DNA from: an uncultured bacterium
GTDB lineage: Bacteria; Krumholzibacteriota; Krumholzibacteriia; Krumholzibacteriales; Krumholzibacteriaceae
Reading direction: 5' to 3'
DNA: 64,000 nucleotides
NCBI GenBank assembly: GCA_965371515.1
Contig: CBDUYR010000002.1
Span: forward strand, 50,203-114,202
Positions within the stretch are counted from its first letter, which is position 1. Each line of letters opens with the position of its first letter. The notes below the pieces were generated by a model. It was not told the origin of the DNA. It saw only the letters and a list, made by a program, of their open reading frames with translations, and made no database searches. Positions 7,415-21,058 of this stretch are shown here, one piece after another. Made by a program: the position numbers and the translations under genes.

Positions 7415-8964
7415 TGGGCAGCGTAATTTATAAAGTGCTCGGCGCTGCCGGTCTCGTCCTGATCGTCATCGGGGGAATAGTCTACGGGATCTTCTACACG
7501 AGCGGGTGGCCCGCCGTACTCCCCCTCGCCCTCGGCATTGTGCTGACCATAGGGGCTTTCGCCGGTGGATACCGTTCCGAAAGATCGGAAGGATCGAGAC
7601 GAACCGCCCGATACGGAATAAGCGCTGGCCTTTCCGCCATAACGGTGGCTGCTATCCTGATCTTCCTCCAGACACTGTCTTTCAGGCATACTTCTACGAT
7701 CGATCTTACGAGCAACCGGCGTTTTTCCCTCTCATCCCAGACAGAAAAGGTCCTCGGCGCACTTGAAACACCCGTGCACCTCACTGGATTCTACAAGGAG
7801 ACGAGCCAGGACAGGGTCGTGCTGCAGGACCTGCTCGAGAGTTATTCGGCGCGCAAACCGGCCGTGACATTTATCTTCATCGATCCCGACAAGTATCCAA
7901 CTAAAGCACGAGAGTATGGAGTCACAAAACCAGGCATACTATTCGTAGAAACCGGCGAGGCGCGTGAAGAACTCGAGAATCCTGACGAGCAGCGTTTGAC
8001 AAACGCAATCGCCAGGGTGACTTCCGGCAGTGTGAAGACGGTCTGCTTCCTCACCGGCCATGGGGAAAAGTCGGTTTTCGAGACGGGGCCCCACGGTATC
8101 AGCGGTCTGATGGAGGCGCTCCATATGGAAAATTTCGAGGTCCGTGACATCCTCGCTCTCAGCGCCGAGAAGATTCCGGAGGAGTGTGACATCCTCATCG
8201 CCGCCGGTCCTGAGAAGGACATAGTCAAGCATGAGCAGAATGTGATCCTCGACTACCTGGTCGGCGGCGGACGTGCCCTCTTCCTCGTCGATCCGATGAC
8301 CGAGATCACAAACATCGAGGGGATACTGGCAGCCTACGGAATAATTCTCGGCGACGACGTTATCGTAGACATGCAGGGAAAACTACTTGCGGGCAACTTT
8401 CTCACTCCTGTTGTGAACAGTTACGGCAAGCATCCGATAACCGACGGATTCCGGCATTTCACATTCTTCCCTCAGGCACGGTCTGTCATCGCGCTGGCGG
8501 ATACACCTCCATCTCTGGTGGTTACGGCCCTTTGCCGGACAAATGAAGGTACCTATTCCGAGACCGATATGTCGACCCTGCTCGAGGGCCAGACGCAGTA
8601 CGATCCCTCGGAGGACACCAAGGGGCCGATCGACATCGCCGTGGCCTCGGCCATGGGATTCAGCCCTGATTCCATGTCCACGGTCATTGAATCCCGCGTG
8701 GTCGTTTTCGGCGACAGCGATTTCGCCGGGAACTCCAACCTTCGTCTTTCGGGAAACAGGGATCTTCTACTCAATACGATCCTCTGGCTCGCCGAGGCGG
8801 AAGACATGATCTCGATCAGGCCGACCGACAACCTGCAGCAGCCCGTCCTGCTGACAGCTGCCCAGGGACGTTTCGTCTTCTGGATCCCGGTCGTTGCCCT
8901 TCCTGCACTGGTACTGCTCACCGGAGCGGCGATCCTCACGTGGAGAAAGAAAACCGTCCGGTAG
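7402..8964 (+). CDS. GldG-like ABC-type auxiliary component (ABC_transp_aux family)
   Basis: 520 aa, with TM helices at the N and C termini and a large extracytoplasmic domain. This is the typical third gene of the GldAFG cassette. Confidence 0.7.
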   Translation: MEKLMGSVIYKVLGAAGLVLIVIGGIVYGIFYTSGWPAVLPLALGIVLTIGAFAGGYRSERSEGSRRTARYGISAGLSAITVAAILIFLQTLSFRHTSTIDLTSNRRFSLSSQTEKVLGALETPVHLTGFYKETSQDRVVLQDLLESYSARKPAVTFIFIDPDKYPTKAREYGVTKPGILFVETGEAREELENPDEQRLTNAIARVTSGSVKTVCFLTGHGEKSVFETGPHGISGLMEALHMENFEVRDILALSAEKIPEECDILIAAGPEKDIVKHEQNVILDYLVGGGRALFLVDPMTEITNIEGILAAYGIILGDDVIVDMQGKLLAGNFLTPVVNSYGKHPITDGFRHFTFFPQARSVIALADTPPSLVVTALCRTNEGTYSETDMSTLLEGQTQYDPSEDTKGPIDIAVASAMGFSPDSMSTVIESRVVVFGDSDFAGNSNLRLSGNRDLLLNTILWLAEAEDMISIRPTDNLQQPVLLTAAQGRFVFWIPVVALPALVLLTGAAILTWRKKTVR

Positions 8965-8977
8965 TGGAGGTCCCGAT

Positions 8978-10300
8978 ATGAAGGGGCGCAGCCTCATCAT
9001 CCTGATCGCCGTTCTCGTCATTGTGGCCGGGTATTTCTTCCTCGTCGAGGAGAAGCAGCACCGGGACACTGCAGATGCGAAGAGGACCTCTCGAATGCTC
9101 CTGCCGTACGGCCCTCTCGACATCGATGCCGTCTCCTTTATCAATCCATACGGCGAGACGATAATGTGGGAAAGGGACGGCGAGGGATGGATGATAACAT
9201 TTCCCGTTACCGATATCGGCGAGAAGAGTACTATCGACATGTTCCTCGGCCAGATCGCTCCCGGGCGGAAGCTCGAGGAGTTTGCCGACGTGACCGACCT
9301 CTCCTCTTACGGGCTCGCTCCGCCTTACGCCACCGTCATCATCGAGAGCGAAAAGTACGGAAGGACCGATACCGTTCATGTTGGCGGGAAGACTCCCACA
9401 AGCTTCAGGTCATACGTGACTCTCGGATCGTCAGGGAATGTAGTGGTGACCCGCGAGCTCGCCCGCAACGTGATGCAGAAGAAGCTGTTTCACCTGAGGG
9501 ACAAGAACTTCATCGCCCCGGCCGACAGGAACATCACATCGTTTTCAATCGTCTCGGGCGGAAACCTTCTCGCCTTTCAGCGGTCGGGAAACTCCTGGAA
9601 GGTAGCCGGCTCGACGCTGACAGTCGACCGCAACGTCCTTGAACCCTGGGTTACCGGGCTGGCCTCCGCCCTTGTATACGAATTCGCCTCCGAGAACCTG
9701 GCCGACACCCTTCTGTTCGGGATAGGCGATCCTCACAGGTCAACCGTCCTCAATACCGCAAGCGGTGAATCGATCAGGATATCGTTCGGCAGGCGCAGGG
9801 ATTCCCTTGTTCCGGTCGTCAGGTCGGGGCGCAAAAATGTGATGATGATAAAGGCCGGATTCCTGGACGCGTTCCACTGGACGGACGACCGCCTCATCGT
9901 CATGAACCTCTCCCTCGTAAAACCGGGAGAGGTCGGCGCCCTCCAGTGGGAGACCCCCGATACCATCGCCTCGTGGAGTATGGAGGACGGCGTATGGATG
10001 ACGCGTGGGGACGACCCCACCCCCGTCGACCAGGAAGCCTTGAAGTATCTGCTGATGTATCTTCGATCGGCGACCTTCGAAAGTCTCGTGACAGACCGAG
10101 AACTCGTATCCGCGGCGAAACCGGACATCATGATCACCCTTGGAGACAGGTCAGGCGAGGTGTTCGACATCATATCGCTATACCGTTTCGAGGACGGGAC
10201 TGCCGGGGGCATTTCGCTTTCTGGCGGAAACGCCGGCCATATCAGCGAGGGAACGCTTGCGGAGATCCACCGGGCATATTCGGCGATTATCATCCGTTAG
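8978..10300 (+). CDS. DUF4340 domain protein (usual partner of GldG-like proteins)
   Basis: 441 aa from ATG 8978, with an N-terminal TM anchor (LIILIAVLVIVAGYFF). Gene order matches the conserved GldG-DUF4340 pairing. Confidence 0.6.
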   Translation: MKGRSLIILIAVLVIVAGYFFLVEEKQHRDTADAKRTSRMLLPYGPLDIDAVSFINPYGETIMWERDGEGWMITFPVTDIGEKSTIDMFLGQIAPGRKLEEFADVTDLSSYGLAPPYATVIIESEKYGRTDTVHVGGKTPTSFRSYVTLGSSGNVVVTRELARNVMQKKLFHLRDKNFIAPADRNITSFSIVSGGNLLAFQRSGNSWKVAGSTLTVDRNVLEPWVTGLASALVYEFASENLADTLLFGIGDPHRSTVLNTASGESIRISFGRRRDSLVPVVRSGRKNVMMIKAGFLDAFHWTDDRLIVMNLSLVKPGEVGALQWETPDTIASWSMEDGVWMTRGDDPTPVDQEALKYLLMYLRSATFESLVTDRELVSAAKPDIMITLGDRSGEVFDIISLYRFEDGTAGGISLSGGNAGHISEGTLAEIHRAYSAIIIR

Positions 10301-10351: not shown

Positions 10352-11482
10352 GTGATGAACGATTCTCAGGCAACGATATCGAGAAGGGATTTTCTTTCCT
10401 GCACGGCGGGAATGATAGCGGCTGGCGCCGCTCTTGGAGGTGCGGCATTCGCCGATGACGGCGGGCCGCATCCGGCTCGGTACTGGGAAAAGCTCGAGGA
10501 CGGCCGCGTCCGCTGCACTCTCTGCCCCCATCGATGTACGATCTCCGACGGCAGGCGGGGCGCATGTAGAGTCAGAGAGAATCGCGGCGGGGTCCTCTAT
10601 TCCCTCTCGTGGGGAAGGCCGTGCGCCCTTCACATCGATCCGATCGAGAAGAAGCCGTTCTACCATTTCCTGCCCGGCTCCATCTCCCTCTCGATGTCGA
10701 CGGTGGGATGCAACATGACATGCCGTTTCTGCCAGAACTGGCAGATCTCGCAATCATCTCCCGAGGACATCGATACCGAGAGTGTGAGTCCGGGATTCTT
10801 CGCGAAAAAAGCCACAAAATCGGGCGCTTCTTCCATAGCATTCACCTACGGGGAGCCGGTCGTCTTCATCGAGTACGCGATGGATATTGCGGCGGCCGCC
10901 AGGGAATCAGGCGTAAAGAGCGTGGTCGTCACCAACGGATATATCGAGCAGGAGCCACTAGCCGATCTCTGTTCATCGGTCGACGCGATCAAGGTCGATC
11001 TCAAGGCCTTCGAGGACGGATACTACAGGAAGATATGCGGTGCCGGGCTCGACCCCGTTCTGCGCTCCCTCGTGGAGATCAGATCCCGTGGCGTATGGCT
11101 CGAGATCGTCTACCTTATGATTCCGACGCTCAACGACAACGCGGAGACGATCGGCAGGATGGCCGCCTGGATAGAGGCCGAACTCGGGCCTGACGTTCCG
11201 GTCCATTTCTCGAGGTTCCATCCCGCCTACCGCCTTCCGGACCTCCCTCCGACACCCGTCTCTTCGCTCGACGCGGCAAGGGCAAGATGTCTCGACGCCG
11301 GATTGAACTACGTCTATATCGGCAACGTAGCCGGTCACGAGGGCGGCTCGACATTCTGCCGTTCATGCTCGAATAAGATTATTGACAGGTCCGGGTACAC
11401 AATACTTTCCATCGAGATGGACGGAGACAAATGCCGGTTCTGCGGGACCGCCCAGCCCGGAGTGTGGAGGAAAGATTCATGA
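10352..11482 (+). CDS. AmmeMemoRadiSam system radical SAM enzyme (PFL-AE-like) with an N-terminal twin-arginine (Tat) signal peptide
   Basis: Radical SAM CX3CX2C motif CNMTCRFCQNW. Overall similarity to the PFL-activase-like AmmeMemoSam radical SAM family. N-terminus SRRDFLSCTAGMIAAGAALGGAAFA-DD is a canonical Tat signal with an AxA cleavage site. Confidence 0.8.
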   Translation: MMNDSQATISRRDFLSCTAGMIAAGAALGGAAFADDGGPHPARYWEKLEDGRVRCTLCPHRCTISDGRRGACRVRENRGGVLYSLSWGRPCALHIDPIEKKPFYHFLPGSISLSMSTVGCNMTCRFCQNWQISQSSPEDIDTESVSPGFFAKKATKSGASSIAFTYGEPVVFIEYAMDIAAAARESGVKSVVVTNGYIEQEPLADLCSSVDAIKVDLKAFEDGYYRKICGAGLDPVLRSLVEIRSRGVWLEIVYLMIPTLNDNAETIGRMAAWIEAELGPDVPVHFSRFHPAYRLPDLPPTPVSSLDAARARCLDAGLNYVYIGNVAGHEGGSTFCRSCSNKIIDRSGYTILSIEMDGDKCRFCGTAQPGVWRKDS

Positions 11483-12990
11483 GGATACGCGTGGCTACCG
11501 GAGGGCTGATATTTATACTGATCCTTGCTGCGGCCGGTACTGATATTGCCGGCCTGAAAGGAAGCGATATGGTTAAATCGATCAGAAAACCGGCCGTTGC
11601 CGGACAGTTCTATTCTTCAGAACCGGAAGCGCTCCGCAGGGAGATAGAGAAATACATCGGCGAGGCCGATCCACCGGCCCTGGAGGACGACATATTCGCC
11701 CTCATATCTCCTCACGCCGGATACGTGTATTCGGGGCATGTAGCTGCATGGGGCTATTCGCTCCTCGATGAGGGGAGTTTCGAGACCGTCGTAATCATCT
11801 CTCCCTGCCATGTCGATTACTTCCGTTTCGCCTCGATCTACGACGGCGACGCCTACGAGACTCCGCTCGGCCTTGTGGAGATCGATAAAGAGCTCTCTGA
11901 GGAGATCGCTTCGCGCAGCGACCTCGTGAGGATCGGCCCGGACGGACATGGTACGGGGTCCCGCGGAAGGGGCGAGCACTCGCTCGAGGTGCAGATCCCC
12001 TTCCTGCAGGTCGCCCTGGGGGATTTCAGGATCGTGCCGATAGTGATGGGTGACCAGTCCGCCGATGTAGTGCAAGGCCTGGGAGAAGCGCTCTCAGGGG
12101 CACTCGAGGGCCGCAACGTACTGATCGTCGCCAGTACCGATCTATCCCATTTCCATGACGACGCCTCGGCAAGGAAGCTCGACGGCGAGTTCATAGAGAA
12201 ACTCGAGGCTTTCGACGCCGGAGGCCTCATGCACTCGATCGATGCGGGAAAGACCGAGGCGTGCGGCGGCGGACCATCGGCGGCGGCGATGATAGCCTCT
12301 GCCAGTCTCGGCGGCAGAGACTGCAAGGTACTGCAATACGCCAATTCCGGTGACGTCTCTGGTGACAGGGGAAGTGTCGTCGGTTACGTCTCCGCCGTCA
12401 TCACGGGAATCCGCGGTAAAAGCGACGGTGACGACGTCGACAGGGAGACGAGGATATTCCTCCTGCGTTACGCCAGGTCGGTCATCCGCAAGAATCTCGG
12501 CATGGAGACAGAGGAGATCGAGAGACCTGACTCGCCCCTCCTCATGGAGAAGCGCGGAGGATTCGTCACTCTCAAGAAGAACGGCAGGCTCAGGGGCTGC
12601 ATCGGATATATCGAGGCTGTCAAACCTCTTCTCGATACGGTCGGCGAGATGGCTTACTCGGCGGCATTCAGCGACCACAGGTTCGACCAGGTCAGGAAGG
12701 AAGAGGTCGACGACCTGGCGATCGAGATATCGGTACTCAGCCCGGTGCGCGAGACAACGGACCCTTCGGAAATCGAAGTCGGGAGGCATGGGATCATAAT
12801 ATCGGCAGGAGGGCGGCGGGGGCTCCTCCTTCCCCAGGTGGCGGTCGAATACGGCTGGGACAGGGACACGTTTCTCGACCAGACGTGCGTCAAGGCCGGT
12901 CTCTCTCCCGGCGCCTGGAAGGATGCCGGTACCACTATAGAGATTTTCAGCGCCGAGATATTCTCCGAAAAGGAGATGGGATTACGTTGA
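11479..12990 (+). CDS. Fused AmmeMemoRadiSam system protein B (Memo-like) and protein A (AMMECR1 domain), with an N-terminal signal peptide or anchor
   Basis: The start ATG at 11479 overlaps the radical SAM stop (ATGA). N-terminal hydrophobic segment MRIRVATGGLIFILILAAAG. Then the Memo N-terminus (IRKPAVAGQFYSSEPEAL ... ISPHAGYVYSG). The C-terminal ~190 aa carry the AMMECR1 motif (GGFVTLKKNGRLRGCIGYIE). Confidence 0.8.
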   Translation: MRIRVATGGLIFILILAAAGTDIAGLKGSDMVKSIRKPAVAGQFYSSEPEALRREIEKYIGEADPPALEDDIFALISPHAGYVYSGHVAAWGYSLLDEGSFETVVIISPCHVDYFRFASIYDGDAYETPLGLVEIDKELSEEIASRSDLVRIGPDGHGTGSRGRGEHSLEVQIPFLQVALGDFRIVPIVMGDQSADVVQGLGEALSGALEGRNVLIVASTDLSHFHDDASARKLDGEFIEKLEAFDAGGLMHSIDAGKTEACGGGPSAAAMIASASLGGRDCKVLQYANSGDVSGDRGSVVGYVSAVITGIRGKSDGDDVDRETRIFLLRYARSVIRKNLGMETEEIERPDSPLLMEKRGGFVTLKKNGRLRGCIGYIEAVKPLLDTVGEMAYSAAFSDHRFDQVRKEEVDDLAIEISVLSPVRETTDPSEIEVGRHGIIISAGGRRGLLLPQVAVEYGWDRDTFLDQTCVKAGLSPGAWKDAGTTIEIFSAEIFSEKEMGLR

Positions 12991-12999
12991 GGTTGACGG

Positions 13000-15198
13000 T
13001 CAGGCGCGGCCCGTAGCGATCTTTCGTGTAAGTATCAGGGCCGCCGCGCAGTGTATCGAAGCGGCCGTCGCGGCCGTCCACGCAAGCCCAGAAAGAGGCA
13101 GCAGCAGGGTTCCGGCAATCAGCCCTCCGGCGCACGCACCGAACATGTCCCACGAATAGAACAGTGCGGGAGGCGCGGCCGCTTCCGCTGGCCATGCCGT
13201 CTCGACGACTGTCCTGTAATAGAATCCCGTCAGCAGTCCGCCCGCTGTCGACAGGGCCGTGAATCCTGCAGTCCCCATCAGATGCCCGCTCCCCGCACCG
13301 GCCTGAAGCCGGAGCCAGACAGGGACAAGGAGTGCCGTCACTGCCATCAGGATATGGCAGACAGCCAGCCTGGAAACTCCCTTCCCCTTCCGTCGTCCGC
13401 CGGCATATGCCCCGAGAGCGGCTCCCGCCATGAACAGGGAGGTCAGCAGCACGAGCGTGTGGTAGAGTATCCCCGAGAACGACTGGTAGGCAAGCATCAC
13501 TGACAGCTGAACCGTCATGCTGCACAGCCCCGTCAGGAACACCGCTGTTTTAGCCGCGGCACCACCCCTCACCAGTATCCCTGTAAGTATGGCGGCGGCA
13601 AGGATCACCGACGGCAGCACCCAGGATGGAAGATCCAGAATGGTTTCGAGAAACCTCACTGTCGCCGTTCCCGACTTCCAGCCGCGCAGTACCAGTTCAA
13701 AAGGCACCAGGACAGGATGTATGTCTGTGTTCAACCGTCGCGGCGCATCGGCCAGCGCGGAAGAGAGGTACTCTCTTCTCTCCTCCGAGATCCTGTAGGG
13801 CAGTTCGTCGAGTGCGAGAAGGCGCCCTCCGAGACCTCTCTCCACGAGTCTTCCCGGGATATCTCCCGAGTCGACCGGGCTGTCTGACGCGATGAAGAAA
13901 ACAGTCCCGCCCGGCACAATGTCGACATATTCGAATGCCGAACTGAGAGTCTCCTCGATTATTTTCAGCACAGCGGCATTCCTGGCGGAGAGGAAGTTCT
14001 CGGAGGATCCGTGCCGCACTGTCAGGATCCCCCCGGCAGAGAGGCTGTTCCGCGCAGACTCGAAGAATTCCGCGGTGAAATATCTGTTCCACCTGAGATT
14101 GATGGGCTCGGGGACGTTGACAATGATTACATCGTACGGTCCCGAGCCGCGGATCAGGAAACGGCCGTCACCCTTCAGGCCCCTTGCGCCAGGTGGTTTT
14201 CTCTCATCTCCGACAGCCCTGCCTACAGCCCCGGACAGCTGCCCGTCGAGTTCGACCCAGTCGACCCTCTCGATGCCGGGATGGCTCAGCGCCTCTTTTA
14301 GCCCTCTCCCCGGCCCTCCGCCGATCATCAGGATATCAACAGGCGCGTCATGAGCCAGCAGCGGTATATGGACCCCTTCACCAGCTCTCTCCATATCCGG
14401 ATAACTGAGAAGCCTCGCTCCTCCGGAGAAGACCGATACGGTCTCCCTGTCCCTCGTCACGCACAGCTCCGCATACCTCGATGGAACGACCTCGACTACC
14501 TCGTACCCCTTGAAAACGATCGACAGACTCGCACTGTCGAGATAAGGCGCCGCCAGGATCCCCGCCACCGCAAACGAGAGTGCTATCGCCCATACCGCGC
14601 GCCTTCCCTTCATGGAAGTAGAGAGGAAGACAGCCGTCACCAGCGCCGACACGCAGAACGACGCCTCGAGCTGTGTGAGAAATGCGAAGAAGAGGATGGA
14701 GAGGAGTACACCACCTACGATCGAGCCGGCCGCTTCCATTATGTAGGCCGAAGAGATACCGGCGGAGATCCCCTCTCGGGGATCCTTCATCACCGCGCTC
14801 GCGGAGTTGTAGACCGCGCCGTACAGAAGCCCGAAAGGAGCGGTAGCAACGAGGATGAATCCCGCGGCGGGGAGGATATCGGGAATGGAACCCGGCGGAT
14901 CGACGAGCACGCTCCTGCCCAGCCGTATCATCAGAACGATGAGGGGAACGGAAAAAGCGAGTGAGAGCGAGAGTCCGCCGAACGCTTTTTCGATGCTCGC
15001 GGAACCTGGCCGTAGGATCCGTCCACCGAGAAGGCCGCCGGCCCCGATCCAGAAGAGCCACGAGGAAAGCGCCAGTCCCAGTACCAGCTCAGTGCCCGTC
15101 ACGACCCCGAGCAGCTCTCTTATAAAAAGTGTCTGCGCGCAGACGGCGCATGCCCCTAGTACAATGACTCTTGCTCGTCTGTGATTCCTGTCTCTCAT
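13000..15198 (-). CDS. Polytopic membrane protein with a central spermidine synthase-like (PABS/aminopropyltransferase) domain flanked by two related TM blocks
   Basis: 732 aa. The central domain has MIGGGPGRGLKE ... VIIVNVPEP, a PABS-type SAM-dependent fold. The N-terminal and C-terminal TM regions resemble each other (LGACAVCAQTLF...GAGGLLGGR versus LTGLCSMTVQLS...GAALGAYAGGR). Confidence 0.65.
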   Translation of the reverse strand: MRDRNHRRARVIVLGACAVCAQTLFIRELLGVVTGTELVLGLALSSWLFWIGAGGLLGGRILRPGSASIEKAFGGLSLSLAFSVPLIVLMIRLGRSVLVDPPGSIPDILPAAGFILVATAPFGLLYGAVYNSASAVMKDPREGISAGISSAYIMEAAGSIVGGVLLSILFFAFLTQLEASFCVSALVTAVFLSTSMKGRRAVWAIALSFAVAGILAAPYLDSASLSIVFKGYEVVEVVPSRYAELCVTRDRETVSVFSGGARLLSYPDMERAGEGVHIPLLAHDAPVDILMIGGGPGRGLKEALSHPGIERVDWVELDGQLSGAVGRAVGDERKPPGARGLKGDGRFLIRGSGPYDVIIVNVPEPINLRWNRYFTAEFFESARNSLSAGGILTVRHGSSENFLSARNAAVLKIIEETLSSAFEYVDIVPGGTVFFIASDSPVDSGDIPGRLVERGLGGRLLALDELPYRISEERREYLSSALADAPRRLNTDIHPVLVPFELVLRGWKSGTATVRFLETILDLPSWVLPSVILAAAILTGILVRGGAAAKTAVFLTGLCSMTVQLSVMLAYQSFSGILYHTLVLLTSLFMAGAALGAYAGGRRKGKGVSRLAVCHILMAVTALLVPVWLRLQAGAGSGHLMGTAGFTALSTAGGLLTGFYYRTVVETAWPAEAAAPPALFYSWDMFGACAGGLIAGTLLLPLSGLAWTAATAASIHCAAALILTRKIATGRA

Positions 15199-15662
15199 GT
15201 CAGGGAGCGCTGATCGTCGAAATAATCTTCCTCGAACACCTTCTTGAAATCGAAGACATCGTCAAATTCCTCTATTGAATCCTCTTCGCTGCTTTCCAGC
15301 AGATTTGCGGCTATCAGGCCAAAGACGATGTTTCCTATGTCCCTCGTCGTATAGATTCCCCAGTGGTTGAGCACTTCTTTCGCCATCGGTCCGAACTGCC
15401 TCGAGGAGATCACCGTCAGCCCCTCGAGCAGCTCCTCGCCGGAAATATGCCTGTCGACGTGAAGCATCTTTATCGTGGCTTCGACTCCGGACAGCACAAA
15501 GCGCCAGGCGTACTTTTCGTATCTGCCGTCGGCGCTCGCAGCATCATCGACCTCCCGCCACCTGTCGGAATCGTGTCTCAATCCCCCGCCCCTTCCCTGT
15601 GCCCGTATGTAGTTGCCGGCCCCCTGCCGGACCCCCTTCTCAGTATCGTCCCGTGTTCCCAT
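15195..15662 (-). CDS. Small acidic hypothetical protein; the true start is probably internal
   Basis: The ORF overlaps the nadB 3' end by 85 nt, so a later start (e.g. Met at ~15464) is more likely. The acidic C-terminus EEDSIEEFDDVFDFKKVFEEDYFDD stands out. Its stop overlaps the start of the downstream membrane gene (ATGA-type coupling). Confidence 0.35.
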   Translation of the reverse strand: MGTRDDTEKGVRQGAGNYIRAQGRGGGLRHDSDRWREVDDAASADGRYEKYAWRFVLSGVEATIKMLHVDRHISGEELLEGLTVISSRQFGPMAKEVLNHWGIYTTRDIGNIVFGLIAANLLESSEEDSIEEFDDVFDFKKVFEEDYFDDQRSLT

Positions 15663-17200
15663 GAAGGATCCCTGTCGGGCCAGTCCATATTGTAATGCAG
15701 GCCGCGCGATTCCTTTCTCCTGGAGGCCGATTCGACTACGAGCGAACTGACCAGCGCGATATTCCGCAACTCTACCATGTCGCTCGAGATGCCATACTCA
15801 TCGAAGAGCATCCTGACGGTCTGGCTGATCTGGCCTATCCTCTGCCTGGCGATGTGGAGGCGTTCGTCCGACCTGACGATGCCGACGTAATCCCACATTA
15901 CCCTTCTGGCCAGGTCCCAGTCATGATCGAGTATCACGGTCTCCAGCACTTTCGGATCGGCAGCGACAGGAACATCCTCTCCGGAGAGTTCATATCGGTC
16001 TTTCTCCATCTCCCCGGCCAGTTTTGCAGCACAGCGCGCGGCGCTCACGAGCGACTCGAGCAGCGAATTGCTCGCGAGCCTGTTGGCTCCGTGGCAGCCT
16101 GAACAGGCGACCTCACCTATGGCATAGAGCCCTTCGAGTGCAGTCGTCCCGTCGATGCGGGCCTTCACCCCTCCAACCATGTAATGCGCGGCCGGGACGA
16201 CCGGGATAGGCTCGGCGCCTATATCTATGCCAAATTCAAGGCATGTCTCGCAGACGAACGGAAAGCGCTGCCTGAGCCAGTCACCCGGTCTGTGAGAGAT
16301 GTCCAGCAGGACGTACTTATCTCCGCTGCGTTTCATCTCGCTGTCGATAGCCCTGGCTACGATATCACGCGGGGCAAGCTCAGCGCGCTGATCGTAGTCT
16401 TTCATGAACTCCCTGCCGTCGAGGCTCCGCAGCACTGCTCCTTCTCCCCTCAATGCCTCGGAGATCAGCCGGGACTTGGCGTCGGGGTGATAGAGACAGG
16501 TGGGATGGAACTGCACGAACTCGAGGTTTTCGATCTCCGCACCTGCGGCGTAGGCCATCGCTATGCCGTCGCCCGTGGCGACGTCGGGATTCGAGGTGTA
16601 GAGGTATATCTTTCCCGCTCCGCCTGTAGCAAGAACGGTGTTCGACGCAAGATATGTACGGATCTCCCCGTCGCCCGGTATCGCGTGACATCCGCGCACC
16701 CTGCCGCCCCTGTCTACGACGAGGTCGACGGCAAGCCTGTTCTCTTCGAGCTCTATCCGGGGATTCGACGCGCAGGCTTCAAGCAATGTATCCTCAAGTT
16801 CCCTGCCGATCAGATCGCTGAAGTGTACTATCCGCGGCCTCGTGTGGCCGCCTTCCCGTCCGAGCTGGAGGTCTCCGCTGCTGTCGTCTCTCGAGAACCT
16901 CACTCCGAGATCGATCAGCTCCTCGATCCTGTCCGGCCCCTCGCGGACCATCATCTCGACAGCTTCACTGTCGCAGAGACCGCCGCCGGCCTCGATCGTG
17001 TCCTTTATGTGCAGCTCGAACGAATCCCTGACCCTGTCCATGACCGAAGCTATCCCGCCCTGTGCATACTTCGTATTGGACTGATCCGCCCCCTTCTTCG
17101 TCAGCACCCTCACGTCCGCGTAAGCGGAGGCCTTCAGGGCGAAGAACAGCCCCGCGGCGCCGCTTCCGATCACCAGTATGTCGCTTCTCACAGGTTCCAA
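15578..17200 (-). CDS. nadB: L-aspartate oxidase
   Basis: FAD-binding N-terminus DILVIGSGAAGL, with succinate dehydrogenase/fumarate reductase flavoprotein-like motifs throughout. 540 aa. Confidence 0.9.
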   Translation of the reverse strand: MEPVRSDILVIGSGAAGLFFALKASAYADVRVLTKKGADQSNTKYAQGGIASVMDRVRDSFELHIKDTIEAGGGLCDSEAVEMMVREGPDRIEELIDLGVRFSRDDSSGDLQLGREGGHTRPRIVHFSDLIGRELEDTLLEACASNPRIELEENRLAVDLVVDRGGRVRGCHAIPGDGEIRTYLASNTVLATGGAGKIYLYTSNPDVATGDGIAMAYAAGAEIENLEFVQFHPTCLYHPDAKSRLISEALRGEGAVLRSLDGREFMKDYDQRAELAPRDIVARAIDSEMKRSGDKYVLLDISHRPGDWLRQRFPFVCETCLEFGIDIGAEPIPVVPAAHYMVGGVKARIDGTTALEGLYAIGEVACSGCHGANRLASNSLLESLVSAARCAAKLAGEMEKDRYELSGEDVPVAADPKVLETVILDHDWDLARRVMWDYVGIVRSDERLHIARQRIGQISQTVRMLFDEYGISSDMVELRNIALVSSLVVESASRRKESRGLHYNMDWPDRDPSWEHGTILRRGSGRGPATTYGHREGAGD

Positions 17201-17435: not shown

Positions 17436-18059
17436 ATGTCAGTGAGGAAGATGAGTATTGTCGCAGCCGTTATGCTTATAGTAGGCGCCGCCGTAATGTT
17501 CGGTTGTGACAACAAGCCGGATAATTACACTACCCGGGCCATAATTTACGTCAGTTATTTGAACGACGGAGAGCCCTACATGTGCGATGTCCTTGAACAG
17601 GGCGATTCTCTCTATTACGAGGATACCTTTACTCTGAAACTCGAGGACGATTTCATAACCGAGGACAAGGTAAAGGTGACGTTCCACAACAGGCCATACA
17701 ACGGTATTATCGAGCCCGCTCTGTCGCTGGGTGATTTCCTTGTCACGGGATATACCGTAGAGTTCGTCCCGACCGACGGGAGTCCCGTTCCTTTGAGCAG
17801 CTTCACGGGCAACATGAGCGTCCTCATCCCGGCCAACGAGATGATCGATGCGTATATCGTTCTCGTGCCCTTCGGCGCGAAAACGGTCGATCCCCTGCTT
17901 TCGATGCAGTACACGAACCAGGAGTTCTACACCAACGCGAGGATCACGTTCAGGGGCCACGAGGTCCAGACGACAAGGGAGATCAGCTTCGAGGCCGGAC
18001 TCCATGTCAACTTCGGCGATCCTCTCATAACGAAGATGAACAAGGATGATTTCAACTAG
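17436..18059 (+). CDS. Hypothetical lipoprotein
   Basis: Signal peptide with lipobox (VMFGC). No recognisable family. A lone plus-strand gene with its own terminator. Confidence 0.5.
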   Translation: MSVRKMSIVAAVMLIVGAAVMFGCDNKPDNYTTRAIIYVSYLNDGEPYMCDVLEQGDSLYYEDTFTLKLEDDFITEDKVKVTFHNRPYNGIIEPALSLGDFLVTGYTVEFVPTDGSPVPLSSFTGNMSVLIPANEMIDAYIVLVPFGAKTVDPLLSMQYTNQEFYTNARITFRGHEVQTTREISFEAGLHVNFGDPLITKMNKDDFN

Positions 18060-18099
18060 GCCGCTCGACTAACAGGGTAACCGGTGTTTTATAGAGAGG

Positions 18100-18131
18100 C
18101 GGCCGTTCTCCGGAAGGGGAGCGGCCGTTTT
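18100..18131 (+). terminator. Rho-independent terminator after the lipoprotein gene
   Basis: CGGCCG-tt-CTCC-ggaagg-GGAG-CGGCCG followed by TTTT (18100..18131). Confidence 0.6.
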
Positions 18132-18157
18132 CCATATCCTGCGGAGTACTCTTTGAA

Positions 18158-19228
18158 TCACAACACAGACTTGAGCAGTTCCTCCATCCCCTCTACTTCC
18201 AACTTCATATTCAGTCTCAGCAGTCTCGTCCCCTCCGGGAAGAGCGCCGCTACCTTGCCCCAGTCCTTCTCCGTCGTGACGAAAACGCTCCCCGTCCCGA
18301 CCTCTTCAATCATTTCCACTATATCCTGTGCGGTATAGGCATGGTGATCGTCGAACCTGAACGATACAGCCGGGTCCAGTCCGTACTCTATCGCGGTCCT
18401 CTCGAACGATTCCGGCCTGGCGATACCACAGAACAGAGTTATATCCGCTCCTCCGAGTCCGGCCGCTTCCACCCTCTCGTCACTGCGTCCGGCGAGCGAG
18501 GCTGGAAAATGTCTCGCAAAGAAGACAGGCGTATCCTTCACGTACCGGGCGGCCTTCTTCGGGACTGTCCGGTCGTTCGCTCTTGTGAAGATCACAGCTC
18601 CGGCCCTCAATACTGCCGATTCAGGCTCCCTGAGCGTCCCGTACGGCAGCAGCCTTCCGTCAGCGAAAGGCCTCTCGGCATCGAGGAGAAGGACGTCGAG
18701 ATCCTTCGGCAGCGAGGTCTTGTGATATGCGTCGTCGAGAATCACATGGGTCGGACCGACGGCCTCCGAGACAGCCCTGATCCCTCTCCCTCTGTCCCTG
18801 TCCACGGCAAGCGGCAGACCGGCCCTGATGTAGAGTACGGCCTCGTCGCCCAGTTCCCGGGCAGCCTCAGATTCTTCTCCGCCCGGCCACATGACATATC
18901 CCGCGGGGAGTCCGGGTCCTCCATCCGCGGCGCAGGGCAGTGCAAGAGCGCCTCCCTCGCGAGTCGCGCGTCCGCCGTAGCCCCGGGTAACTACAGCGGG
19001 CACCATCCCTCTTTCCCTGAGCGCGGATGCGATTGCCAGGACGCACGGCGTCTTGCCGCCGCCGCCCACCTCGATATTTCCCACTGATATTATCTTCGGT
19101 CCTCCTGCAGTCGCGTGTGAAGCCTGTGCCGGAGTCGTACGGACGTACAGTCCGTAAAATACGGAAAGGGCAAACCGGAGCGGGCCGAGCAGGGACCATC
19201 CGTCCTTTCCCATAAATATCCGCATACG
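18158..19228 (-). CDS. lpxK: Tetraacyldisaccharide 4'-kinase
   Basis: P-loop ISVGNIEVGGGGKTP matches LpxK. The start was set at the internal Met (19228) to avoid a 44-nt overlap with the upstream gene. Confidence 0.85.
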   Translation of the reverse strand, partial: RMRIFMGKDGWSLLGPLRFALSVFYGLYVRTTPAQASHATAGGPKIISVGNIEVGGGGKTPCVLAIASALRERGMVPAVVTRGYGGRATREGGALALPCAADGGPGLPAGYVMWPGGEESEAARELGDEAVLYIRAGLPLAVDRDRGRGIRAVSEAVGPTHVILDDAYHKTSLPKDLDVLLLDAERPFADGRLLPYGTLREPESAVLRAGAVIFTRANDRTVPKKAARYVKDTPVFFARHFPASLAGRSDERVEAAGLGGADITLFCGIARPESFERTAIEYGLDPAVSFRFDDHHAYTAQDIVEMIEEVGTGSVFVTTEKDWGKVAALFPEGTRLLRLNMKLEVEGMEELLKSVL

Positions 19229-19241
19229 TCTCGTATAGCGT

Positions 19242-19925
19242 TCAACTATCCTCATGCGGCCATACATCCTCGCCGGTATAACCAATATCCCTGTCGAGGC
19301 GGGATGTCAGCTCGCCCAGTCTCGTCTCGAGCTCGATCCTGAAGCGCTCCCTCTCCTCCGCCCCGGTCCCTGCAGGAACGATAAGAGGTTCGCCGTACTC
19401 GACTATCACCTTCGCGAACGGAGCGGGGACCTGGAACCTGTCCCATGAACGGAAGATCTTTCTCCCGCGCGCCGTATCCGATATAGGCACGACAGCGGAC
19501 GCTGCAAGGCGGCTGAGTTCTGTCGCCCCCTGCTGCACCCTGCCGCGCGGTCCCTTCGGGCCGTCAACCGTCAATCCAACATCATAGCCTTCGGCCAGGA
19601 CTCCCCTGAGCTCCCTCAGCGCCCTGGCTCCGCCTCGCGTCGTCGATCCCTTGAGATGCCCGAATCCGAGCCATTCGATAGTCTTCCCCATCAGGTCGCC
19701 ATCGTAGTGTTCGGAAGCGAGTATGCGTATCTTTCTGTTCCTGTGGGTCCAACTGAGCACAAGGAGCCTCCCGTGCCAGAATGCAAATATCAGCCTCTCT
19801 GACATCTTCCGTGCCCTGTCGAGATTCTCGCCGCCCCTTATCTCTATTCGCCAGGTGACGCCGAGGATCCTGATCAGTACGGAGGCGAAAAAACTCGTTA
19901 CCTTCACGTTCAGTCTGATCTTCAT
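19242..19925 (-). CDS. DUF374 family protein (LPLAT-superfamily acyltransferase-like, often linked to kdtA/lpxK)
   Basis: 227 aa with the FAFWHGRLL motif. It sits between lpxB and lpxK, as is typical for DUF374. Confidence 0.6.
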   Translation of the reverse strand: MKIRLNVKVTSFFASVLIRILGVTWRIEIRGGENLDRARKMSERLIFAFWHGRLLVLSWTHRNRKIRILASEHYDGDLMGKTIEWLGFGHLKGSTTRGGARALRELRGVLAEGYDVGLTVDGPKGPRGRVQQGATELSRLAASAVVPISDTARGRKIFRSWDRFQVPAPFAKVIVEYGEPLIVPAGTGAEERERFRIELETRLGELTSRLDRDIGYTGEDVWPHEDS

Positions 19926-21058
19926 CGGTGGCCGGACCTTCCCTGGTCTCCGGCCATCGCCAGAGCTCTCTCCGCGAGATGGTCCATCCCGTTTTCCCGG
20001 CGGAGCGAATTTCTCAGCGAGAGGAGCCGTCCCGAGATCTCCCCGTATCGCTTCCCGTCTCCCAGGATCAAATCAGCCTCGGCCGCTATCCTGCCGGGAA
20101 CAACATCAGCCTGGATCAGTTCGGGAACGACAGTTTCTCCAGCGAGCACGTTGGGCATTGCTATCCACGGGATAGTCACCATCGTCCTCGCCAGTAGATA
20201 AGTCAGTGCCGAGGTCCTGTATATGACGACCATCGGTGTGCCAGACATCGCCGTCTGAAGGGTCACGGTACCGGACGACGCGATAACCAGGCCCGCCCCG
20301 GCCAGCTCTTCCGTACCTTTCCTCGTGATGGTCATGTACTCTTTCATATCTTCCGGAATCGCGAGAAGCCCGTCTTCTATCAGTGGAGCGGCTCCCAGCC
20401 GAAACCTCGCCCGCGGCCAGCCGTCGTGGAGCTTGCGAGCCGCCCCGAGCAACGGCTCGAGATGATTCGTCACTTCCTGCCTTCTGCTGCCCGGAAAGAG
20501 CAGAATATCGAACGGCTCGTCCATACCGGGCGCCTGCTTCGTGCCGGACGGGGCATCTATCTCCTCGAGCATAGGGTGGCCGGCGAAGAAGACCGGGATC
20601 CCTCTCTTCCTGTAGTAATCGACCTCGAACGGAAGGATGACGGCCATCAGGTCTACGACCTTTTTCATCTTTCTCGTCCTCCATCCCGCCCACGCCCAGA
20701 CCTGCGGGCTTATAAAATAAAGAACGGGCACACCCCTGCCCTTCGCCTTCGCGGCGATCCTCAGGTTCATTCCGGGATAGTCGACTGGTATGTATAGATC
20801 GATCTCACCGCCTGAGAGCAGATCGCTCAGCTTCCGTTCGAGCCGCCTTATCTTCGGCAGGCCGGAGACGATCTCCGAGAATCCCATGAAGGCGTAATCC
20901 TCGATCGAGAATCTCACGTCGGCGCCCGCCGTGGCCATCGCCTCTCCTCCCATGGCGATGAATCTCGTGTCGGGTGCCCTGGTCCTTATCGCGGAAATCA
21001 GCGCTGCGGCGTGGTGATCGCCGCTCGTCTCACCGCTGGTTATCAGTATCGTCTTCAT
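19922..21058 (-). CDS. lpxB: Lipid-A-disaccharide synthase
   Basis: N-terminus ILITSGETSGDHHAAALI is characteristic of LpxB. 378 aa. Confidence 0.9.
   Translation of the reverse strand: MKTILITSGETSGDHHAAALISAIRTRAPDTRFIAMGGEAMATAGADVRFSIEDYAFMGFSEIVSGLPKIRRLERKLSDLLSGGEIDLYIPVDYPGMNLRIAAKAKGRGVPVLYFISPQVWAWAGWRTRKMKKVVDLMAVILPFEVDYYRKRGIPVFFAGHPMLEEIDAPSGTKQAPGMDEPFDILLFPGSRRQEVTNHLEPLLGAARKLHDGWPRARFRLGAAPLIEDGLLAIPEDMKEYMTITRKGTEELAGAGLVIASSGTVTLQTAMSGTPMVVIYRTSALTYLLARTMVTIPWIAMPNVLAGETVVPELIQADVVPGRIAAEADLILGDGKRYGEISGRLLSLRNSLRRENGMDHLAERALAMAGDQGRSGHR

Follow-up and report, generated by a model that had tools for sequence, protein, structure and literature searches.

A membrane protein with a spermidine-synthase-fold domain between two transporter halves accompanies signal-bearing AmmeMemoRadiSam radical SAM enzymes across phyla

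A 64,000-nucleotide stretch of the genome of an uncultured Krumholzibacteriaceae bacterium (assembly GCA_965371515.1, contig CBDUYR010000002.1; hereafter the window) carries at 13000..15198, on the reverse strand, a gene for a membrane protein of 732 residues and 14 transmembrane (TM) helices, in which a domain of the spermidine synthase fold (PABS) lies between the two halves of a major facilitator superfamily (MFS) fold. The partner of this protein, here called MFS-PABS, that is conserved across phyla is the AmmeMemoRadiSam set encoded beside it at 10352-12990, which the first-pass annotation of the window overlooked. The partnership is specific to those versions of the radical S-adenosylmethionine (SAM) enzyme, amrS, that bear predicted export signals. 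Tentatively, and with somewhat less than even confidence, we propose that MFS-PABS may serve as an accessory of an exported AmmeMemoRadiSam system, by moving SAM, or a different adenosyl compound, to a radical SAM enzyme in the periplasm or by presenting it there.

Hydropathy and an AlphaFold2 model built from a 33-sequence alignment (predicted local distance difference test, pLDDT, 87.9; predicted template modelling score, pTM, 0.90) place seven TM helices on either side of the central domain. The N-terminal part (residues 1-232; 14503..15198, reverse strand) comprises TM1-6 of the MFS N-half and an extra TM7 that would take the chain to the outer face, with modelled helices at residues 6-30, 36-61, 68-98, 108-136, 143-173, 176-194 and 202-228. 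The C-terminal part (residues 505-732 and the stop codon; 13000..13686, reverse strand) holds two short interfacial helices, TM8, through which the chain would re-enter the membrane, and TM9-14 of the MFS C-half, with helices at 527-542, 546-575, 581-602, 607-635, 639-668 and 679-722. The two blocks had looked like an internal duplication on first inspection, and so they prove to be: BLASTP of one block against the other finds no similarity (E=3.7), and a profile-profile alignment of residues 1-232 with residues 505-732 by hhalign reaches a probability of 98.2% (E=5.5e-14, score 95), far above reversed controls (score 16) and twenty block-shuffled controls (scores of at most 34). Residues 2-199 are paired with 544-728 and TM1-6 fall onto TM9-14, while TM7 and TM8, which flank the insert, have no counterpart. 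The protein has the 12-helix core of two homologous six-helix halves that makes up the MFS fold; Pfam MFS_1 gives no match to the window protein at E<=0.01, and a precomputed PF07690 match exists for the relative P0039. The MFS comparators are of the DHA1/vesicular amine type (SotB 6KKI, VMAT2 9KQA, VAChT and NorA), from which the window protein differs in that the linker between the halves is replaced by TM7, a 270-aa enzyme-fold domain predicted to be extracytoplasmic, and TM8.

Proteins with a PABS-fold domain after an MFS-like TM block are already known through the NCBI 'fused MFS/spermidine synthase' model NF037959 and through PRK03612 (NF002956), to which window residues 6-421 align with 91 bits. 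These models are single-block (NF037959 has 480 positions and one TM block), whereas the window protein adds a second homologous block that completes the 12-helix core, plus an additional helix on either side of the insert. The first-pass annotation rightly set the architecture apart from the usual fusion: NF037959 (cutoff 40 bits) has no match to the window protein at E<=0.01. Among the relatives, P0029 (71.6) and P0039 (44.3) pass the NF037959 cutoff and P0031 (25.4) and P0044 (35.5) fail it, and distant relatives above it carry that name at NCBI. The two-block form, taken at first to be unusual, is not rare, given that a scan of one genome per species with a pattern from an 11-sequence alignment detected full-length two-block relatives in at least 574 species. 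The reading frame at 13000-15198 is likewise intact, and the earlier description of it as one gene with a PABS-type core and TM regions on both sides is sound; since the same single, full-length open reading frame (ORF) recurs in hundreds of genomes, a fusion of two genes by sequencing error or frameshift is ruled out.

Both termini of MFS-PABS are predicted to be cytoplasmic and the PABS-like insert to be outside, a topology that rests on the positive-inside rule, MFS convention and fusions to FMN domains. Family-wide, the mean number of Lys and Arg residues per loop is 2.1-3.0 in the N-terminus, L2-3, L4-5, L6-7, L8-9, L10-11 and the C-terminus, and 0-0.4 in L1-2, L3-4, L5-6, L9-10, L11-12 and L13-14. 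By the positive-inside rule, this alternation would place the termini in the cytoplasm, in agreement with MFS proteins, all of which have their N- and C-termini there, and an insert reached after seven helices from a cytoplasmic N-terminus would lie outside. In the fusion relatives P0041, P0043, P0044 and that of locus L135, a single TM helix, an FMN_bind domain and a NapH/NosR-type Fer4_5 module come after the MFS C-terminus. The FMN domains of NosR, RnfG and NqrC are extracytoplasmic; because one TM helix separates the MFS C-terminus from a domain of this type, the C-terminus is probably inside.

The central domain (residues 233-504; 13687..14502, reverse strand) has kept the PABS fold: PF01564 scores above the family threshold and PDB profiles match, as the first-pass annotation had supposed from two strings that are both present in the product, MIGGGPGRGLKE (residues 291-302) and VIIVNVPEP (residues 357-365). 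A generic methyltransferase core was considered and rejected. Counted over 84 distinct family members, the invariant or nearly invariant positions are the Gly-rich loop (G293-295), E316 (84/84), D318 (83/84), D344 (83/84) with G345, D356, N371, R372, N490 and D492, and alignment to SpeE identifies those from the Gly-rich loop to D356 as adenosyl-binding. The GGG[D/E]G acid occurs in 0/84 relatives: residue 296 is V36/L16/A14/I10, with no D/E at all, and the window protein reads GGGPG. Position 361, that of the catalytic Asp, is N57/D16/S6/A3/H2, with N361 in the window, and position 364 is D62/E15; the window has also lost the tyrosine of YHE, which reads AGE, and has N-V-P-E-P in place of D-x-x-D-P. 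In PABS enzymes, binding of the aminopropyl amine and exclusion of the SAM carboxylate depend on the GGG[D/E]G acid and the catalytic Asp. That a domain with a retained adenosyl site has lost both argues for binding of SAM or another adenosyl compound without aminopropyl transfer.

Aminopropyl transfer, perhaps onto an envelope substrate, was the activity suggested on first pass, and a genuine membrane-bound aminopropyltransferase (spermidine synthase) would be in line with the PF01564 score, with the 91-bit alignment of the N-half and core to PRK03612, with the 'spermidine synthase' labels that relatives carry at JGI and with the Asp found at the catalytic position in 16/84 relatives. These points are outweighed, and we regard such an enzyme as very improbable. 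All NCBIfam equivalog cutoffs are missed widely (PRK03612, 91.1 versus 472; PRK00811, 65 versus 260; TIGR00417, 55.4 versus 249.55), and the motifs GGGDG, YHE and D-x-x-D-P have become GGGPG, AGE and N-V-P-E-P, whereas the PRK03612-type proteins examined keep all three. In direct alignments, the single-block membrane SpeE proteins of Ralstonia and Novosphingobium, the latter encoded two genes from speD, have RDEYRYHE, GGGDG and VDFPDP where the window protein has PDMERAGE, GGGPG and VNVPEP. Soluble SpeE (Thermus thermophilus 1UIR; T. maritima 1INL) likewise possesses the GGG[D/E]G acid, the catalytic Asp and the YHE Tyr that the window domain lacks; the window domain in addition interrupts a transporter, with a predicted location in the periplasm, and its catalytic Asp is mostly Asn across the family. 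Furthermore, a domain outside the cytoplasm would be away from decarboxylated SAM, and no speD or polyamine genes are adjacent.

The gene neighbourhood points elsewhere. In the window, amrS (10352..11482, forward strand) matches TIGR04337 with 407 bits and starts with a twin-arginine signal (SRRDFL...AFA); it is followed by a Memo-AMMECR1 fusion (AmmeMemoRadiSam B and A; 11431..12990, forward strand; TIGR04336 279 bits, TIGR04335 185 bits; Pfam Memo and AMMECR1), whose probable start, ATG 11479, gives an ATGA overlap with the amrS stop. All three components of the named system (amrA, amrB and amrS) thus adjoin the MFS-PABS gene and score above the curated cutoffs. Neighbours were mapped by tblastn with the window proteins in 91 loci, namely the best-matching 80 of the at least 574 species and 11 from look-ups. 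Acidobacteriota dominate the 80 best-matching loci, and the other carriers include Krumholzibacteria, Omnitrophota, Zixibacteriota, Thermodesulfobacteriota, Latescibacterota, Clostridia, Ignavibacteria, Nitrospirae, Poribacteria and Altiarchaeota. MFS-PABS has amrS as a neighbour in 75 of the 91 loci, AMMECR1 in 62 and Memo in 60. The amrS adjacency extends over at least ten phyla, including archaea, and over several gene orders: AmmeMemoRadiSam is convergent with MFS-PABS in Acidobacteriota and Krumholzibacteria, DUF362-amrS-MFS-PABS are co-directional in Zixibacteria, Ignavibacteria and Clostridia, amrS overlaps MFS-PABS in one Omnitrophota genome, and one archaeon has a co-directional MFS-PABS-amrS-Memo/AMMECR1 arrangement. 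Since about 15 loci have amrS with no Memo/AMMECR1 nearby, the radical SAM enzyme is the tightest partner.

Export signals recur on these partner enzymes. They were called by motif and hydropathy with a classifier that includes an RR-motif rule. The window amrS begins with MMNDSQATISRRDFLSCTAGMIAAGAALGGAAFA, a textbook twin-arginine translocation (Tat) signal ahead of the start of the TIGR04337 model at residue 42; the extension (residues 1-41) has a weak Pfam match to the TAT-signal model, and some close homologues have a precomputed PF10518 TAT_signal match. Beside MFS-PABS, the automatic classifier assigned a Tat or Sec signal to 55 of the 68 assessable amrS sequences, and four more have Tat motifs that it missed; the RR-motif rule misfiles a few sequences (L024, L033, L034 and L058). 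The signal is of the Sec type in a few Omnitrophota and of the Tat type in most others. The N-terminus of the window Memo-AMMECR1 protein, MRIRVATGGLIFILILAAAG, is a predicted signal or anchor, and 58 of 60 Memo-AMMECR1 proteins beside MFS-PABS have a hydrophobic N-terminal signal or a lipobox. From these signals we infer that amrS is exported. AmmeMemoRadiSam in its usual form, to judge from the TIGR04337 model boundaries and plasmid examples, is a three-gene set without signals, unlike that of the window, whose enzymes have export signals and an MFS-PABS and elsewhere also Tat-DUF362, NapH-like and FMN_bind modules.

Seven amrS genes that appear to lack a signal (L004/5, L008, L011, L060, L063 and L086) belong to what can be called a split form. 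Six of the seven have beside them a small same-strand ORF whose product combines a Tat signal or anchor with the EA[RK]YY strand that is normally found at the amrS N-terminus; in five of these six, the ORF is located downstream of amrS and its product terminates in LAG or MAG. In L011, an upstream 82-aa ORF has a hydrophobic anchor and a related 'EADWY' motif and no RR motif. The small ORFs are located at 9137-9319 (reverse strand) in L004, 10009-10203 (reverse) in L008, 5661-5843 (reverse) in L060, 9524-9727 (reverse) in L063, 12229-12483 (reverse) in L086 and 10921-11160 (forward) in L135. These six are 50-85 aa long; all but that of L063, which has a hydrophobic anchor, possess a Tat motif, all but that of L135 have EA[RK]YY, and all but that of L063 are downstream of amrS. 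The arrangement suggests hitch-hiker export via Tat or a membrane tether.

Two Tat-signal amrS proteins (L152 and L164) contain, after the signal and ahead of the radical SAM core, an additional segment bearing a CxxCH motif (CATCH or CAACH) and YCH(T/I)PHTG; it could be a haem-c or metal site. On a Segatella hominis plasmid (L094, 5459-7876), it is amrB (Memo-AMMECR1) that carries a signal and the adjacent amrS that carries none, with no MFS-PABS within 7 kb; this is a mixed case outside the simple export model.

A membrane-tethered complex, as the split Tat or anchor ORFs suggest, would be expected if the PABS-like domain were a pseudoenzyme with no part in transport, a scaffold or dock holding the exported enzymes at the membrane, while the MFS part is a degenerate anchor, and the loss of the catalytic residues also fits. 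We nevertheless consider this improbable. Roughly twelve polar or charged residues within the membrane show no variation across the 84 sequences (Q22, R27, E28, E37, R92, Y152, E155, Q572, Y579 and D684), and because such conservation is not expected of a passive anchor, this role is unlikely. The invariant residues of the N-half taken as a whole are Q22, R27, E37, W47, R92, Y152 and G158, those of the C-half (nearly invariant) Q572, Y579, D684 and G687; moreover, the full 12-helix MFS core is retained and the adenosyl-binding residues are invariant.

The link between export signals and MFS-PABS was examined in loci chosen by amrS. Plasmid records and a metagenome scan served as controls, the homologues found with the window radical SAM enzyme being all close and signal-bearing; 80 metagenome loci were therefore seeded on amrS with a signal-less Trichlorobacter amrS as reference, loci without MFS-PABS needing flanks of at least 3 kb on both sides to be counted and loci with MFS-PABS entering whatever their flank length. 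Among signal-less amrS loci, 23 are without MFS-PABS and one is with it; among signal-bearing amrS loci, one is without MFS-PABS and nine are with it (Fisher's exact p=1.8e-6, with loci treated as independent and kinship ignored). The lone signal-less locus with MFS-PABS, L135, belongs to the split form: TRRKFL occurs in a small ORF downstream of amrS, and MFS-PABS is present there as part of a 1304-aa MFS-PABS-FMN_bind-Fer4_5 fusion. No MFS-PABS gene lies near the signal-less amrS genes of Ideonella and Trichlorobacter replicons, and full-length MFS-PABS homologues are absent from all plasmid records. A radical SAM enzyme located outside the cytoplasm calls for MFS-PABS, and apparently no other does.

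Overall, these observations lead to the following proposal for how MFS-PABS could work. A radical SAM enzyme outside the cytoplasm has neither SAM nor reductant there and would need both to be provided. A complete MFS fold (6+6 helices), interrupted by TM7, the spermidine-synthase-fold domain and TM8, would present the insert on the periplasmic face; this domain has retained the residues for binding the adenosyl part of SAM or decarboxylated SAM and is without those for decarboxylated SAM specificity and aminopropyl transfer. The MFS part would move SAM, a sulfonium cation, out of the cytoplasm, and the outward domain would bind it, pass it to the exported radical SAM enzyme and perhaps also capture 5'-deoxyadenosine or methionine for return. 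The ligand bound or transported would be SAM or a related adenosyl compound, as the retained adenosyl site suggests. Known SAM transporters are the DMT-family carriers of Rickettsia and Chlamydia and the mitochondrial SAMC; they would share with MFS-PABS the proposed movement of SAM alone, given that their folds are those of DMT and mitochondrial carriers and that they have no attached SAM-binding domain.

In other lineages, electrons for the exported system could come from Tat-DUF362 proteins and NapH/NosR-like modules, sometimes fused to MFS-PABS. Recurrent neighbours besides the AmmeMemoRadiSam genes are Tat-signal DUF362 (42 loci), NapH-like polyferredoxin (15) and DUF6599 (11), of which the DUF362 and NapH-like genes fit a need for electrons outside the cytoplasm. 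The fusions P0041, P0043, P0044 and L135 join MFS-PABS to FMN_bind and Fer4_5 (NosR/NapH/RnfG matches), akin to NosR/NapH-type conduits with a periplasmic FMN domain; the window protein is without this module.

As separate observations, the fused relatives P0041, P0043, P0044, P0045 (L011, 6001-9750) and L135 (12781-16695) are 1144-1304 aa long, FMN_bind precedes the NapH/NosR-type Fer4_5 in most of them and not in P0045, and a TGATIS flavinylation motif can be read in L135. The Acidobacteriota cluster extends to Tat-signal DUF362, DUF6599 and NapH-like polyferredoxin (for example L017, 15057-18272; L045, 15127-18382; L043, 14992-16029), often with a second, divergent DUF362 gene upstream of MFS-PABS. 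Tandem MFS-PABS paralogues occur in L024 (4209-6671 and 8181-10517), L033 (1272-3734 and 5244-7580) and L040 (610-2883 and 5989-8406), in Thermodesulfobacteriota/Syntrophobacterales and one unclassified genome.

The main rival to SAM supply is substrate export: the MFS would export or flip a substrate or intermediate of the pathway, such as a nucleoside-like metabolite or an isoprenoid or lipid-linked compound, and the PABS-like domain would be a SAM-type transferase or holder beside Memo, AMMECR1 and the radical SAM enzyme. Memo contexts have reportedly been tied, in part of the earlier literature, to the modification of nucleotide bases and isoprenoids. The association and export-specificity data fit this explanation equally, since a cytoplasmic system needs no substrate exporter, and association data cannot separate the two; a polyprenyl synthase adjoins the gene in L004, and the invariant polar residues beyond the adenosyl site (N371, R372, N490, D492 and H277) are also in its favour. 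On the opposite side, the tightest partner is the radical SAM enzyme, accompanied by MFS-PABS without Memo/AMMECR1 in the roughly 15 loci mentioned above, an exported radical SAM enzyme would still need a source of SAM that nothing else in the loci provides, and the canonical aminopropyl-transfer residues are lost. We judge substrate export unlikely, albeit well short of negligible.

It is important to point out what weighs against a SAM-supplying role. The correlation with export is equally expected if the MFS carries the pathway substrate and not SAM, and a radical SAM enzyme that regenerates SAM would need no supply. In L150, a Tat-signal amrS with Memo/AMMECR1 and 10-kb flanks has no MFS-PABS within 10 kb; conversely, amrS is missing within 10 kb of some family members (L009, L014, L026, L037 and others). 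The loci are phylogenetically non-independent, with Acidobacteriota over-represented, and signal peptides were judged by motif and hydropathy only. DUF362, NapH-like and DUF6599 genes were not found within the 64 kb of the window, nor were FMN_bind/Fer4_5 genes, and neither a SAM riboswitch nor any other RNA family came up when the window and seven co-directional loci were scanned with Rfam. The conservation of D364 (mostly D/E), N371, R372, H277, N490 and D492 may mean that the PABS-like domain is still catalytic, for example as a SAM-using transferase, and not a pure binding module.

The first-pass annotation had instead coupled the membrane protein to nadB and a small acidic protein as one unit. 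The small Minf_1886/TIGR04138 protein (15195..15581, reverse strand; 116.8 bits versus a cutoff of 60) has 128 aa from TTG 15581, and nadB (L-aspartate oxidase; 15578..17200, reverse strand) is identified by NF006567 (633.4 versus 629) and TIGR00551 (545.8 versus 452.75). The overlaps described earlier exist in part as stated. The small-protein stop and the start of the 732-aa protein do share ATGA (15198-15195), and there is an overlap with nadB. The longest form of the small ORF (ATG 15662, 155 aa) would overlap nadB by 85 nt; relatives of the protein have 121-133 aa, 38 close ones exactly 128 aa, and because these fit the TTG start at 15581, the 85-nt overlap is probably not real and is replaced by a 4-nt TTGA overlap with the nadB stop. 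As a functional unit of nadB, the Minf_1886 protein and the membrane protein, the trio has in its favour the 4-nt start/stop overlaps that join the three window genes and a gene order kept in relatives down to about 40% identity. Yet NadB and Minf_1886 are each found (tblastn) in only 7 of the 91 family loci, all from the window's clade, in which LpxB-DUF374-LpxK, nadB, the small protein, MFS-PABS, AmmeMemoRadiSam, DUF4340 and ABC genes are all syntenic, and the link is missing in every other phylum carrying the family. The trio also breaks up pairwise: L178 has the small gene, MFS-PABS and AmmeMemoRadiSam, with three bacillithiol-type genes separating nadB from the small gene; in L180, HSP20 and Lon come after nadB and the small gene, and MFS-PABS is absent; and L179 has the small gene alone with neither partner. 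A single unit of these three is thus highly implausible, and coupling to nadB is rejected as a family trait. nadB is a syntenic neighbour and not a family-wide partner; the small protein is a lineage-specific neighbour, translationally coupled in the window, and a lineage-specific partnership of it with MFS-PABS alone is possible. The genes intervening in L178 (1451-4957) are BshC-like, PIG-L and GT4.

On the other side of MFS-PABS, its stop codon is 9 nt from that of the convergent Memo-AMMECR1 gene (window 12988-13002), a gap into which a terminator hairpin cannot fit; in a 65%-identical relative (L001, 8650-10092), a 480-aa gene with a weak HNH match lies between the two. Both flanks of the locus hold envelope-related genes with synteny within the clade. 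According to the Pfam labels of syntenic relatives, DUF4340 is encoded at 8894-10300, with ABC-type genes further out in relatives, and a 207-aa putative lipoprotein, LpxK, DUF374 and LpxB at 17436-21058.

The AmmeMemoRadiSam trio is named and uncharacterised, and a literature search returned no paper on AmmeMemoRadiSam function, exported radical SAM enzymes or MFS/spermidine-synthase fusions. Neither the two-block split MFS with an external domain, nor the link to exported radical SAM enzymes, nor the split Tat-signal ORFs were found reported in the literature searched; the comparative genomics of Memo-AMMECR1-radical SAM contexts by Burroughs et al. 2019 may overlap these points. The MFS-PABS family itself is widespread, in at least 574 species, and uncharacterised, and the 'spermidine synthase' label given to this protein in hundreds of genomes is very probably wrong.

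Radical SAM enzymes are regarded as cytoplasmic because they require Fe-S clusters, SAM and a low-potential reductant, and we know of no description of periplasmic radical-SAM chemistry or of a bacterial SAM export system. A complete radical-SAM pathway outside the cytoplasmic membrane, made up of a Tat-exported radical SAM enzyme with exported Memo/AMMECR1, a split MFS as exporter and presenter of SAM, and an electron conduit (NapH/NosR-like, FMN, DUF362), is a possible if rather doubtful extension of the proposal. If true, it would mean that cells run radical-SAM chemistry in the periplasm, with a supply line of its own. The MEMO1 and AMMECR1 families are conserved up to humans and reportedly disease-linked; an exported bacterial version would offer a handle on them, as it would limit the substrate to the envelope or periplasm and name accessory proteins.

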